In this document: piece by piece, positions 23,347-35,478 of the stretch
Layout of the letters: each line of letters opens with the position of its first letter
Position numbering within the stretch: the stretch's first letter is position 1
Source: a virus
DNA length: 35,478 nt
Virus record (IMG/VR): IMGVR_UViG_3300009702_000011
Location: 1 to 35,478 of that record
Strand: one strand, 5' to 3'
Program-made: the position numbers and the translations under genes
The notes under the pieces: generated by a model
What the model was told of the DNA's origin: nothing
The model's input: only the letters and a program-made list of their open reading frames with translations
Databases searched by the model: none

Positions 23347-23478
23347 AGCCGAGAGCAAAACAGAGAGCGAGTAAGCAACCAATCTTCCCCCAGCGGCCGT
23401 AACGCCGGCGCATCTGCTGGGGGTGGAATCGACCAAGCCGGTAAACCTCAAATGCCCCATGGTGGGCAGGAGTGGAAA

Positions 23479-23805
23479 ATGACGCGTTACAACATGTCGG
23501 ACGGGACGATTGTCGACACGAGCAAATCAAGCAAACAGTGGAAGGAGGAAACGGAGTGGGACGGAAACAACCATATCAGTTGTGCGACCGGTTGCCAGTG
23601 GGATCATGAGACGTTGTACCGGTCGCGGCGGGGCCGGTATTATGTTGTCCACGATTCGCAGTATCAATGTCGTCGCGAGTACGCCGAGTGGCTCAGCAAT
23701 GAGGAAGCCGTTCGTTGGCTCAGTGCCAACGGATATTTTGACGACGACAGCACGGAGGAGATCCCAGAAGAGCTGACGAAGTTGGTCGACGAGTTAACCG
23801 AGTAG
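23479..23805 (+). CDS. Conserved phage hypothetical protein
   Basis: MTRYNMSDGTIVDTSKSSKQWKEETEWDGNNHIS...TLYRSRRGRYYVVH is a pattern I recall from uncharacterised prophage proteins. ATG follows GGAG. Confidence 0.55.
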   Translation: MTRYNMSDGTIVDTSKSSKQWKEETEWDGNNHISCATGCQWDHETLYRSRRGRYYVVHDSQYQCRREYAEWLSNEEAVRWLSANGYFDDDSTEEIPEELTKLVDELTE

Positions 23806-23888
23806 TCACTCAATCGTCTGCCCCGTCCGGTTGCCAACCGCTCGGCCGTGAGGCGGCGGGGCAGACGCCCTTATTGGGAGCACGAGTA

Positions 23889-29159: not shown

Positions 29160-29483
29160 ATGAGTGACGCACGAAGAACAGGAGCACCACGGATGACCGC
29201 ACGGACCGCCTCAAGTCAGCAACACTTCTTCGACGTCTGGGATCATGCCGAGCGAACACCGCCACCCACCGACTCGCATATTGTCGCGGCCGATGTGCCG
29301 AGACTCACCGGGCAGAACGCGGCGATACTCGCGCGGTTGCAACGTGGCCCGGCGACGAATCGAGAACTGGCGGAAATCAGTCTGAAATACACTTCACGGA
29401 CTTCGGATTTACGCGCCGCCGGATACCGAATTGCGTGCGTGCGGGGACCTGGCGGACTTAGCGTCTACACACTGGAGGACTGA
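29160..29483 (+). CDS. Winged-helix DNA-binding protein
   Basis: LARLQRGPATNRELAEISLKYTSRTSDLRAAGYRI is a wHTH pattern. The start is uncertain. Confidence 0.5.
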   Translation: MSDARRTGAPRMTARTASSQQHFFDVWDHAERTPPPTDSHIVAADVPRLTGQNAAILARLQRGPATNRELAEISLKYTSRTSDLRAAGYRIACVRGPGGLSVYTLED

Positions 29484-29485
29484 GC

Positions 29486-29755
29486 ATGCCGAACTTCGAA
29501 TACCCTGACCTTGATGCCGCGGTCAAACAGTCCATGGCCGAGCTGATCGAGCAAGCGGCCGCGTGCATTGGCATGCTCGCGATCATGCGCGGTGACTACG
29601 GCCAATGGTACTGCCGCGTCGGCGGACCAGGTGACCCAGTCATCACTGCCGACAGTTACGAGGCGATCGTGGATCTGCTTATGGACTATGGCGTACTGGG
29701 TGCGGTTGGTAGGCGGCGTAGCAAGATGGACCACGAGGGGCATTGCACGACGTGA
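29486..29755 (+). CDS. Hypothetical protein
   Basis: 89 aa; ATG follows GGAGGA (29474-29479). Confidence 0.55.
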   Translation: MPNFEYPDLDAAVKQSMAELIEQAAACIGMLAIMRGDYGQWYCRVGGPGDPVITADSYEAIVDLLMDYGVLGAVGRRRSKMDHEGHCTT

Positions 29756-29858
29756 CGAGTTAACGAAATATCCAGTGAAGGATCTTACAGGACGTAAGAT
29801 CCGATCAAGCGATGCGGCCAGACGTAGGACGCTGACGGCCGCATTCATGGAGGCAAGC

Positions 29859-30302
29859 ATGGCAAAGACGACTCAGCATGACGCGTCTGGAATGATTGAC
29901 GCTATCTGTAATGTGCACCCGGATCAGGCGGAGGCGATTGACGAATTGATCGTCGACCTTGCACGACAATTGGCGGTCGCCACAGCCGTACAGGCCGCGT
30001 TGGCTGGAAACAACGCACGTCCGGAACCGACGCCGCAGCCCACAACCGCGGCAACACGTCCTATCAAGCAACGTCCGGCACCAAGTCGCACCGGCCAGGC
30101 CAGGCCGACTGCCAAGGCGATCGAGGTCGCCAGGTGCATACTTGCCAACGGCGCACTGACGAAGGACGCGATCGCCGATCGTCTTGGATGGAAGCGTCAC
30201 GCGGTCGCGATGACGCTGGGCCGCAGTAAGCAGCATTTCACGCGACGTGAGGATGGCACCTACGTCGTTGGGCCGGGCCTATCCGCGGAAATTGAACAAT
30301 GA
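29859..30302 (+). CDS. Hypothetical protein with Pro-rich linker and C-terminal wHTH-like segment
   Basis: ATG 29859 follows GGAGG (29849-29853). The upstream part of ORF 29568..30302 overlaps 29486..29755. Confidence 0.5.
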   Translation: MAKTTQHDASGMIDAICNVHPDQAEAIDELIVDLARQLAVATAVQAALAGNNARPEPTPQPTTAATRPIKQRPAPSRTGQARPTAKAIEVARCILANGALTKDAIADRLGWKRHAVAMTLGRSKQHFTRREDGTYVVGPGLSAEIEQ

Positions 30303-30559
30303 CCGGCACGCAATGCAAGGAACCGGCCACCAAACGTCGCGAGAAACGAATGCCGCGAATCATCGAGCGCCGACTGATCGGGCCGATGACGTGCCGGGTT
30401 GGGCTGTGTGGTCGCGATGGCACGCACAGAGTGGCATGTCCTGGCGTGAGGTTTGATGCGGATGACGATTACGGCGAGCGGCCGGTATGGGTCTCGGTAT
30501 GGTACTGCCGCAAGCACGCGGGTAGATGCGTTGCATATGGATCGCCGTGGCGGAAGTAA
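30299..30559 (+). CDS. Hypothetical Cys-containing small protein
   Basis: 86 aa with an ATGA overlap at 30299-30302. Confidence 0.5.
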   Translation: MTGTQCKEPATKRREKRMPRIIERRLIGPMTCRVGLCGRDGTHRVACPGVRFDADDDYGERPVWVSVWYCRKHAGRCVAYGSPWRK

Positions 30560-30675
30560 AGGAATAGGAGTCGTAACCGGCGAGGGCCGCACGGAGCGGC
30601 CAGCATGATGCACGCCGGAACGGGTCGTAGCTCGGAGCTGCGGCCCGGACCGGTCTTACAACGGAGAATGACAGG

Positions 30676-30852
30676 ATGTTAGTACTGACACGACAGGCAA
30701 AACAGACGATTCGGATCGGCACGGACGTGGAGATCCAGGTTGTGCAGATCCATGGCACCCGAGTGCGGATCGGGATTATGGCGCCGCGCGAGGTAAGCGT
30801 GGCGCGTGGTGAGTTGAGGAACTTCGCGCAACAGGAAAGGAAGAACCAATGA
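30676..30852 (+). CDS. csrA: Carbon storage regulator CsrA/RsmA homologue (58 aa; missing from the ORF track because it is under 60 aa)
   Basis: My translation is MLVLTRQAKQTIRIGTDVEIQVVQIHGTRVRIGIMAPREVSVARGELRNFAQQERKNQ*. E. coli CsrA, as I recall it, is [48 protein letters not shown]. There is an ATGA overlap with the next gene at 30849-30852. Confidence 0.9.
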   Translation: MLVLTRQAKQTIRIGTDVEIQVVQIHGTRVRIGIMAPREVSVARGELRNFAQQERKNQ

Positions 30853-31382
30853 CAACTTATGAACGTGCCGGTCAGGACGTGCTGGATGTGGTCGCAACGA
30901 CCATGGAAACGTACCACGGCCATTTGCGGGACGCGGCACTCACTACGGACGTGCTACTGGCCTACGGGCCGAAAGACGCGGATGGCGACCTGGTCGGCCC
31001 GGCTATCAAGCGGCATGGCACGACGTGCGCCGCACAAGTGCGGATCATCAATCTGCGCGATCGCGTGGCGGGCCGTAGTGACGTGGAGATCATGCTCGAT
31101 GGCGATCGCATCGATGAATGGTCGGATGAGCAATTGGCCGCGATCATCGACCACGAGCTGACACACCTGGAACTCAAAGTGGCGGACGAAGGCGTCAAGC
31201 GTGATGACATCGAGCGGCCGTGTTTGCGGCTACGCGAGCATGATCACGAATTCGGCTGGTTCGACAGTGTGGCCCGTCGCCACGGTGAGCATGCCATCGA
31301 GGTCCAGCAGGCTCGGCAGTTACTTGAGCGGGACGAGCTGCGGCAGTTGTACTTGCCGGGATTAGACGTGGGGGCGGCGTGA
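30849..31382 (+). CDS. Putative phage metallopeptidase-like protein
   Basis: IIDHELTHLE (HExxH) plus downstream REHDHEFGWFDSVARRHG, a pattern I recall from the putative phage metallopeptidase family. Confidence 0.65.
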   Translation: MTTYERAGQDVLDVVATTMETYHGHLRDAALTTDVLLAYGPKDADGDLVGPAIKRHGTTCAAQVRIINLRDRVAGRSDVEIMLDGDRIDEWSDEQLAAIIDHELTHLELKVADEGVKRDDIERPCLRLREHDHEFGWFDSVARRHGEHAIEVQQARQLLERDELRQLYLPGLDVGAA

Positions 31383-31597
31383 TGGGCAAGCAACGCATTG
31401 TCAGCTGCCCAGGCTGCGGCCGCTCACAGCCCCGACAACGTGACGACACGATCTATTGGTGCGAGGTGTGCCAATGCCAGTTCGACGATGCACCGGACGA
31501 GGGCGGATCATATAGCAACTACGATCCATCATGGCGGCTGCAACGGGAGGAACGGCGCAATGAGCGACGGCGGCGACGTGCGTGGCGAACTGCTTGA
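31379..31597 (+). CDS. Zinc-ribbon protein with Arg-rich tail
   Basis: CPGCG...WCEVCQ (two CxxC pairs) and a C-terminal RRNERRRRRAWR. Confidence 0.6.
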   Translation: MMGKQRIVSCPGCGRSQPRQRDDTIYWCEVCQCQFDDAPDEGGSYSNYDPSWRLQREERRNERRRRRAWRTA

Positions 31598-31614
31598 TTC
31601 CAAGGGTGCTAGCG

Positions 31615-31785
31615 ATGGGTAGCCGATCGACGTACCGACCGTCTTGGCGTCGCTGGCCATACGGTTGCGCCTCAATCGAAGAGCGAATGGAGCAGCGTGA
31701 GACGTGGCCAGCAGTGCCCAAGATATTGATTGTGACACGGTTGAAACGGACACGAAAACGCAAGAGGAAAGGACGATCACGATGA
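31615..31785 (+). CDS. Possible small basic protein
   Basis: 56 aa from ATG 31615, ending in an ATGA overlap with the next gene (31782-31785). The KRTRKRKRKGRSR tail is basic and the RBS is weak. Confidence 0.35.
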   Translation: MGSRSTYRPSWRRWPYGCASIEERMEQRETWPAVPKILIVTRLKRTRKRKRKGRSR

Positions 31786-32291: not shown

Positions 32292-33001
32292 CTGACGCTG
32301 GCTATGTGAAACTGTGGCGACAATCGATTGTGTCGCCGGTGTTTCAAGATGCGTTGGCATGGCAGGTGTTTTGCTGGCTGCTTCTCAGGGCGTCACACAA
32401 GGACCACAAAGCGTTACTGAAGGTAGGTCGTAATCCTGTGGTTGTGCATGTCAAACCGGGCCAAGTGGCAATCCGGACGCGGCTGGCGGCTCAGGATCTT
32501 CACATGTCAAACAATACGCTGCGGCGGAAGCTAACACTGCTTGCTGATCTGGATTGTATCGTCACTGACCCCACCCAAAAGTACACCATGGTGACGATTC
32601 TAAACTGGGAAAAGTACCAAATTGTCACCCCCTATGTCCCCCCGGACAATGTAGCACCCAGTGACACACCATCGAATACACCATCGAATACACCATCGAA
32701 TACACCATCGAATACACCATCGGCTACACACAACAAGAAGACCAAGAAGGGTAAAGAAGTAAGAGGGAGACGGCGTTTCACGCCACCCACCCCCACAGAG
32801 GTATCCGACTACGGAAAGACAATTGGCTTCGAACTCGACGGCGAACATTTCGTGGCCTACTACGAGACCCGCGGCTGGATGGCCGGTCGGCAAAAAATGA
32901 AAAGCTGGCGTGCGGCGGTGCGGACCTGGAAGATCCGAGCCAAACAGAATGGCAACGGTCAGGCTGAAACAGATTATCCGATTCTCGAAGGGCTGAACTG
33001 A
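32288..33001 (+). CDS. Replication initiator / helicase-loader-like protein (N-terminal wHTH, TPSN-repeat linker, conserved C-terminal module)
   Basis: The N-terminus GYVKLWRQ......F.......W..L.A resembles phage replication proteins. The C-terminus FTPPTPTEVSDYGKTIGFELDGEHFVAYYETRGWMAG..KMKSWRAAVRTW is also typical. It lies directly upstream of dnaB. Confidence 0.65.
   Translation: MTDAGYVKLWRQSIVSPVFQDALAWQVFCWLLLRASHKDHKALLKVGRNPVVVHVKPGQVAIRTRLAAQDLHMSNNTLRRKLTLLADLDCIVTDPTQKYTMVTILNWEKYQIVTPYVPPDNVAPSDTPSNTPSNTPSNTPSNTPSATHNKKTKKGKEVRGRRRFTPPTPTEVSDYGKTIGFELDGEHFVAYYETRGWMAGRQKMKSWRAAVRTWKIRAKQNGNGQAETDYPILEGLN
32666..32725 (+). repeat. 12-bp tandem repeat acaccatcgaat x4 plus one degenerate copy (encodes TPSN TPSN TPSN TPSN TPSA)
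   Basis: Exact copies at 32666, 32678, 32690 and 32702. A degenerate copy lies at 32714-32725. Confidence 0.9.
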
Positions 33002-35355: not shown

Positions 35356-35478
35356 GCGAACTGGACGTGGAACCATGCCAGATCATCAATACCGCAACGC
35401 CGATCTATCGTTTCTACCGTCGTTCTCGACGTTGGTAGGCCCGAAACCGCCGGACGATTTCGTGTCAAACGGTGCGAC
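35356..35478. repeat. Terminal direct repeat, copy 2
   Basis: Identical to 1-123. It contains the start of the 20..424 ORF again. Confidence 0.95.

Follow-up and report, generated by a model that had tools for sequence, protein, structure and literature searches.

The DNA analysed here, referred to as the window, is the whole 35,478-nt stretch from positions 1 to 35,478 of IMG/VR virus record IMGVR_UViG_3300009702_000011. On its plus strand lies a 58-codon csrA gene, preceded by a structured leader rich in the GGA trinucleotides that CsrA-family proteins recognise, and overlapped at its stop codon by a gene for a zincin-like metallopeptidase. The features of this locus, with their coordinates in the window, are:

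30560..30675, plus strand: GGA-rich structured 5' leader of csrA, 116 nt, a candidate CsrA-binding autoregulatory region on the basis of its GGA count and fold
30585..30601, plus strand: hairpin 1, a perfect 6-bp stem (GGCCGC/GCGGCC) with the loop ACGGA, nested in the helix 30577-30582/30613-30618
30621..30647, plus strand: hairpin 2, a 12-bp stem (two G-U pairs) with a CGG triloop, from the predicted fold
30661..30666, plus strand: ACGGAG, the csrA Shine-Dalgarno (SD) sequence with an A(N)GGA motif, its GGAG ending 9 nt 5' of the ATG
30671..30678, plus strand: ACAGGAUG, a GGA motif over the csrA start codon (probability unpaired 0.92)
30676..30852, plus strand: csrA, encoding a 58-aa CsrA-family RNA-binding protein (Pfam, PHROG, PDB and AlphaFold2 (AF2) matches)
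30849..31382, plus strand: zincin-like metallopeptidase, PF18894 PhageMetallopep, with an HELTH motif (Pfam 2.7e-11, 44.1 bits against 23.7)
30360..30923, minus strand: 187-aa antisense open reading frame (ORF), judged spurious (no Pfam match; overlaps three called plus-strand genes; uncalled by public gene callers)

The 58-codon ORF named in the original prediction is present at 30676-30852, and by its sequence is a CsrA-family translational regulator, for which RNA binding is predicted. Its product, MLVLTRQAKQTIRIGTDVEIQVVQIHGTRVRIGIMAPREVSVARGELRNFAQQERKNQ, begins MLVLTRQ, and the proposed profile hidden Markov model (HMM) search matched Pfam PF02599 over profile positions 1-49 of 53 (E 6.7e-20; 71.3 bits against a cutoff of 27), while PHROG 9500, a "CsrA-like regulator", was matched at 1.3e-17. 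Solved CsrA, RsmA and RsmE structures also match by sequence, with the PDB CsrA 1y00 at 2e-10. The estimate that the protein is roughly half identical to enterobacterial CsrA proved accurate, with 24 identities to E. coli CsrA over the first 48 residues, and the MLxLTR, VRIG and APxEVSV segments all found. Alignment with relatives places the retained RNA-binding residues in strand beta1 (L2, L4, R6), strand beta5 (V40, V42) and at Arg44, which is essential for RNA binding in CsrA (PMC7366521); the residues invariant among these relatives, Arg44 included, are intact. The AF2 monomer (predicted local distance difference test (pLDDT) 76) has strands at 11-14, 18-26 and 29-35 and a helix at 44-56, and the best 15 PDB matches in a Foldseek search were all CsrA, RsmA or RsmE, at probability 1.00. 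Strands beta1 and beta5 are unformed in this model, as expected because such strands pair across the dimer. The gene had been described as hidden and masked by the 187-aa antisense ORF; that ORF exists, and belongs to no family, but csrA was found by public gene callers: a 58-aa PF02599 product is among the gene calls of both the ENA and the Logan copy of the contig.

The window is the complete genome, of approximately 35.4 kb, of a temperate siphovirus-like phage. It encodes a large terminase, portal, major head protein, tape measure, DnaB, RusA and a tyrosine integrase, the sole major minus-strand gene, as well as a Cro/C1-type helix-turn-helix protein, a DNA methyltransferase and a DnaD-like loader. 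An exact 123-bp direct terminal repeat (1-123 and 35356-35478) means that the assembly is circularly closed. These structural, integrase and replication genes, with the closing repeat, bear out the claim that csrA is phage-encoded. The gene sits in a long plus-strand string of early and replication genes, neither adjoining the integrase nor forming a terminator-flanked moron. A scan of 29400-31700 for sigma-70 promoters and intrinsic terminators, whose coverage excludes planctomycete promoters, found no promoter and no relevant terminator; hence co-transcription with the early genes is the default, and csrA is probably expressed with the early lytic transcript. No near relatives of the phage were identified by megablast of 9.5 kb against GenBank phages, nor when IMG/VR was scanned, once with the CsrA and once with the peptidase.

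The leader had been placed at 30560-30678, as 119 nt containing eight GGA trinucleotides. The count stands, with GGA at 30561, 30567, 30593, 30617, 30634, 30647, 30663 and 30674, the last of these reaching into the csrA ATG, but the true intergenic leader is the 116 nt of 30560-30675. Similarly, the enrichment of a few-fold that had been claimed holds relative to the genome (3.8-fold), but not relative to local dinucleotide composition, over which it is only 1.9-fold. Across the window, the plus strand averages 2.13 ± 1.45 GGA per 119 nt, with eight reached in 0.3% of such segments, giving the leader a z score of 4.0; dinucleotide shuffles of the leader itself average 4.3 GGA and reach at least eight with a probability of 0.012-0.013. 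In an unbiased genome-wide scan, the leader ranked first among non-coding segments and was surpassed only by the coding cluster of 23449-23591. The early operon has six intergenic gaps, of which this one has 6.7 GGA per 100 nt and five accessible GGAs, against 1.5-3.8 per 100 nt and 0-2 accessible GGAs in the other five.

The leader is structured beyond chance, as had been proposed, with a minimum free energy (MFE) of -57.5 kcal/mol (z -3.6; P 0.0005 in 2000 shuffles). Its predicted fold is a three-way junction holding the 6-bp hairpin with the ACGGA loop, followed by the 12-bp hairpin at 30621-30647. The first of these, the GGCCGC-ACGGA-GCGGCC element already recognised at 30585-30601, displays its loop GGA (30593) with a probability of being unpaired of 1.00. 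A perfect hairpin of at least 6 bp with GGA in the loop occurred in 1.4% of shuffles (P 0.014), and none of the 2000 combined at least eight GGA with such a hairpin. In hairpin 2, which is not followed by a U-run and was not called as a terminator, one GGA (30634) extends across the loop into its closing pair, and another (30647) lies at the 3' base, with probabilities of being unpaired of 0.73 and 0.67 respectively. Overall, five of the eight leader GGAs have a mean unpaired probability of at least 0.7, compared with 1.3 ± 1.0 in shuffles (P 0.003). The GGA reported to overlap the start codon is there (ACAGGATG, 30671-30678), and the CAGGAUG at this point is identical to the CsrB-type repeat. 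Five primary A(N)GGA/AGGA sites (30560/61, 30567, 30593, 30663 and 30674) are spaced 11-41 nt apart, two of them within the -30 to +5 zone, namely the start-codon motif and the ACGGAG of the SD, which is a primary site by the CSRA_TARGET definition; this layout agrees with that of CSRA_TARGET (PMC4066749). At most four primary sites were found at any of 57 other ORF starts, against five for csrA. Rfam gave no match in the whole window at the gathering score, nor in 30400-30900 at E<=10.

The leader also contains a 25-codon upstream ORF (MMHAGTGRSSELRPGPVLQRRMTGC) at 30605-30682, which begins 8 nt past the hairpin-loop GGAG and ends at a TAG overlapping the csrA ATG (GGATGTTAG). It may be a chance occurrence in GC-rich sequence. 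E. coli iraD is reportedly a precedent for CsrA-controlled coupling through a short upstream ORF.

Downstream, the csrA stop codon overlaps the ATG of the metallopeptidase gene as ATGA, in agreement with the original prediction, and this arrangement would couple translation of the peptidase to that of csrA. The HExxH residues H102, E103 and H106 do not vary across 34 homologues of the peptidase, and its AF2 model (pLDDT 88.5) weakly resembles only the minigluzincins selecase and jannalysin. A six-frame CsrA HMM scan found CsrA near the peptidase in just four of approximately 100 peptidase loci (L009, L010, L025 and L023). In L009 (889-1589) and L010 (864-1562), which come from two JGI samples, a divergent relative carries an in-frame fusion of CsrA, a linker and PhageMetallopep, although an internal GTG after AAGGG could still start the peptidase separately. 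L025, from a Pirellulaceae metagenome-assembled genome (MAG), has a 71-aa CsrA approximately 1.2 kb 5' of the peptidase. In L023, a 2.89-Mb Planctomycetaceae MAG contig, a degenerate CsrA-like gene (861-1067; Arg6 to Leu, Arg44 to Cys) lies approximately 2 kb 5' of the peptidase homologue and adjoins an integrase-like gene; it is likely to be a prophage copy without canonical RNA binding. An exhaustive search with the fusion protein as query found no other fusions among the best 150 of 1556 matches, and a widespread CsrA-peptidase fusion was rejected, as only L009 and L010 have one, the N-terminal extensions of P0152 and P0212 not being CsrA. The CsrAs from peptidase contexts are 36-43% alike mutually, compared with the 50-57% that the window CsrA shares with cellular CsrAs over the full multiple alignment, which suggests independent acquisitions. 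The association of CsrA with the peptidase thus recurs, though only sporadically, and more than one origin is probable.

The host of the phage is most probably a member of the Planctomycetota, as its closest CsrA and peptidase relatives come from this phylum. A word-indexed protein search with the CsrA returned only the identical protein, followed by a match at 66% identity, and the closest CsrAs, which share 60-66% identity across its first 47-48 residues, are cellular; one of the closest clusters is named "carbon storage regulator [Planctomycetota bacterium]". The peptidase relatives in assemblies are mainly from Planctomycetota MAGs, including the 2.89-Mb contig. In the closest full-length relative (L011/L012, 2724-3026), the homologue of the 96-aa gene at 29193-29483 of the window directly abuts the peptidase; hence the intervening 1.4 kb (29486-30848), which holds g89, g147, g86, the leader and csrA, is a variable mosaic slot.

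That the leader mediates negative translational autoregulation of csrA, in the style of E. coli, is the favoured reading, a prediction to which we give an even chance. The leader fold would expose A(N)GGA-type motifs in the ACGGA hairpin loop and over the start codon. A CsrA dimer could then bridge an upstream exposed site, either the loop at 30593 or the sites of the 12-bp hairpin, to the SD and start-codon sites 11-41 nt away, and the bridged dimer would keep ribosomes from loading on csrA. Repression would be passed on by way of the ATGA overlap, lowering translation of the downstream metallopeptidase. Both the binding of CsrA to the leader and the repression are steps that we infer from the motifs and the predicted structure.

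Several observations weigh against autoregulation. The GGA enrichment over local composition is modest, and the whole plus strand is G- and A-rich. The SD GGA in ACGGAG is predicted to be mostly paired (probability unpaired 0.37), and a loosened CSRA_TARGET rule is passed by six of the 57 other ORF starts (approximately 10%). The protein carries Gln at position 7 in place of the Lys or Arg found in all aligned relatives, a change that could weaken RNA binding, and the NCBIfam equivalog models score below their cutoffs (NF002469, 69.5 against 73; TIGR00202, 64.4 against 70.1), so the product is a CsrA family member rather than a certified equivalog. No promoter or terminator call in 29400-31700 marks the transcript boundaries. 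As the leader is identical in all three assemblies of this phage, and no homologous leader was found in relatives among GenBank phages, in IMG/VR or through the protein search, it draws no support from conservation or covariation. The leaders at 13 other csrA loci (seven GenBank phages, the planctomycete-phage contexts L009, L025 and L023, and three cellular loci) are not GGA-rich, with z scores of -0.9 to 1.8; hence self-targeting is not family-wide, and a general rule that phage csrA genes have GGA-rich leaders was rejected. In most other phages, hardly any leader precedes csrA, those of the GenBank phages being 0-107 nt and not GGA-enriched.

Many of these points would be explained were csrA real, but the GGA richness and structure of its leader unrelated to CsrA, with the segment instead being a purine-rich mosaic junction, an RNase processing site, a transcript stabiliser, an attenuator or an internal promoter region, or having no role. 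This main alternative, doubtful yet to be taken seriously, fits the modest local enrichment, the G/A skew throughout the plus strand and the ordinary leaders of other csrA genes, as well as the finding that the genome's densest GGA cluster is mere coding sequence. It is also consistent with GGA-loop hairpins not being enriched genome-wide (6 observed against 4.2 ± 2.1 simulated), and with the variability of 29486-30848 relative to L011/L012, such that the gap may be a recombination seam. What it leaves to coincidence is that the element lies directly 5' of the one gene whose product recognises GGA, that its motifs fall on the SD and start codon in the preferred A(N)GGA context, and that the directed tests gave P values of 0.003-0.014 each, with the joint criterion reached by no shuffle. 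The same accessible GGAs, five in approximately 115 nt, in a phage whose host lineage has a chromosomal CsrA, might instead indicate a leader acting mainly as a decoy or sponge, titrating host CsrA or buffering phage CsrA, rather than as an on/off operator. We regard this as highly improbable, since known sponges are separate, abundant small RNAs (sRNAs) with far more loop-displayed GGAs (PMC7652899), whereas this element has one or two GGAs in hairpin loops, has no Rfam Csr/Rsm match, and is contiguous with the csrA start codon, as an mRNA leader without a terminator. Hence it differs from Csr/Rsm sponge sRNAs of the CsrB or RsmY/Z type in each of the respects by which they are recognised: a separate transcript, many loop GGAs and an Rfam match.

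Two further alternatives concern the gene rather than its leader. Rather than acting freely as a global regulator, CsrA might be mainly the partner of the metallopeptidase in a two-gene module; it could, for example, bring the peptidase to particular RNAs or ribonucleoproteins, or serve as its regulator or substrate. The ATGA coupling, the in-frame fusion seen in two samples of a divergent relative, and the same-strand CsrA genes 1-2 kb 5' of the peptidase in two planctomycete prophage-like loci all favour such a module, which nevertheless seems very unlikely given the approximately 4% of peptidase loci with a nearby CsrA, the lack of more fusions among the best matches, and a divergence among context CsrAs that suggests independent acquisitions; even the L009 fusion could reflect a lost stop codon with re-initiation at the internal GTG. 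Least probable of all, to the point of being negligible, is that 30676-30852 is unexpressed, as a chance ORF or decaying pseudogene. Its shortness, the equivalog scores just under cutoff and the change from Arg to Gln at position 7 might be read in this way, but the PF02599 match is near full length and far over threshold, the family-invariant residues are intact, the N-terminus is an exact MLVLTR, the SD is good, the stop neatly overlaps the start of the next gene, and independent gene callers called it.

Two further features lie upstream of the csrA leader within the mosaic block:

29756..29858, plus strand: second structured leader, before the gene at 29859-30302 (MFE z -3.57; four GGA, all of A(N)GGA/AGGA type)
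30299..30559, plus strand: 86-aa Cys-rich gene, its TAA stop directly 5' of the csrA leader; no family match (Pfam, PHROGs)

The second leader has AUGGAGG at its SD and contains a perfect 9-bp hairpin at 29780-29802 (GGATCTTAC-AGGAC-GTAAGATCC) as well as another that includes GUAGGAC. Of the six perfect plus-strand hairpins with GGA in the loop, three are within 29782-30601. A possible additional CsrA target, this second leader was found post hoc and is weaker than the csrA leader.

Elsewhere in the window, the GGA cluster at 23449-23591 is the densest in the genome, with up to 10 GGA per 119 nt, and lies in a 108-aa gene (23479-23805) without a family match. This gene is flanked by GC-rich hairpins (approximately 23385-23425 and 23817-23865), just 5' of a DUF551 gene and the integrase, and looks like a moron-type accessory gene rather than an RNA sponge. 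The cluster was rejected as a phage sponge RNA, being inside this called gene and encoding WKEETEWDGN. Overlapping the peptidase stop is an uncalled 72-aa ORF (31379-31597) with two CxxC pairs, resembling a zinc ribbon, and a weak PADLOC match to DrmB (5e-4); it occupies a 399-nt gap to which the gene caller had assigned a doubtful 43-aa gene on the minus strand. Membership of the csrA locus in an anti-phage defence system was rejected, as a PADLOC search gave no match for csrA, the peptidase, g86 or g147. The DnaD-like loader gene contains a 12-nt tandem repeat (ACACCATCGAAT, 4.8 copies, 32666-32722) encoding TPSN repeats, and in the ENA assembly of this phage the region is shorter by 24 nt; hence the copy number of the repeat differs between samples.

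The closest functional parallel is E. coli csrA. The phage protein belongs to the same family, at 45% identity with R44 and the beta1 and beta5 motifs retained, and the E. coli leader likewise has several GGA sites, including one over the SD, so that the mode predicted for the phage is the same translational self-repression as that described by Yakhnin et al. 2011 (reviewed in PMC7652899). The present gene differs in being phage-borne, in its length of 58 aa and its Gln7, and in a leader unrelated in sequence, for which binding is predicted; no Csr sRNA was found in the phage window, and the host phylum probably uses other antagonists. The closest named relative is a Planctomycetota chromosomal CsrA (P0007/P0133, MDE2509165.1; 60% over 48 residues), with which a V-x-RGEL motif is shared. 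The cellular protein is 71 aa, with a C-terminal extension, whereas the phage copy stops at residue 58, and the cellular genes adjoin 4HBT and NUDIX genes and have leaders with two GGA. A near homologue, P0003 (62%), lies in a fliW-csrA-flagellin locus of the partner-switch type typical outside Gammaproteobacteria, as in B. subtilis and Campylobacter (PMC7652899). The phage has neither a fliW nor a flagellin gene, and the C-terminal extension bound by FliW is absent or minimal in its CsrA. P0003 also lacks Asn at the position aligned to the critical Asn55, and the alignment of C-termini between lineages is unreliable. Among accessory CsrA homologues on mobile elements, RsmQ is a plasmid-borne Rsm protein. 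Such plasmid proteins, and CsrT of a Legionella integrative and conjugative element, are likewise thought to tune element or host expression (PMC7366521), but differ from the present protein in element type, host and sequence clade.

Phage csrA is itself an established category, represented by PHROG 9500 and by 81 GenBank phage records, all less than 48% identical to the window CsrA. A 2020 survey found phage csrA alleles in 30 of 2517 genomes, with examples in Pseudomonas (RsmM-type), Vibrio, Providencia and Bacillus phages (PMC7366521). Hence the locus adds one more example to a known kind, contrary to any impression of novelty, and neither a phage CsrA nor CsrA autoregulation would surprise a specialist. 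The first functional test of a phage csrA came in 2025, when knockdown of PTXU04_00028 in an E. coli phage was found to shrink plaques (PMC11879866). Like the catalogued phage CsrAs, that of the window is encoded by a small gene among the early or regulatory genes of a tailed phage; unlike them, it is nearer to cellular Planctomycetota CsrA, and has a 116-nt structured, GGA-rich leader and coupling to a metallopeptidase. This locus stands out for its probable Planctomycetota host, for a leader that looks unusually like a CsrA operator, and for its recurrent association with a zincin peptidase.

These elements might be combined in a single, improbable scheme, in which CsrA and PhageMetallopep, coupled in this phage and fused in one relative, would act as a functional module among a group of phages of the Planctomycetota, with translation of both gated here by the binding of CsrA to its leader. 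The minimal 58-aa CsrA, compared with the host-type 71 aa, might evade an antagonist protein of the host and, during infection, seize the host's post-transcriptional control, for instance of flagellin or carbon flux; other early genes would join the circuit through the second leader (29756-29858). Phage csrA genes are widespread and their roles barely known, and in the Planctomycetota both Csr regulation and phage biology have received little study. The locus offers a compact case for studying a CsrA with an operator-like leader of its own. Were autoregulation to fail, it would be one more catalogued phage csrA; if true, the phage would have imported an E. coli-style self-limiting circuit along with the regulator.

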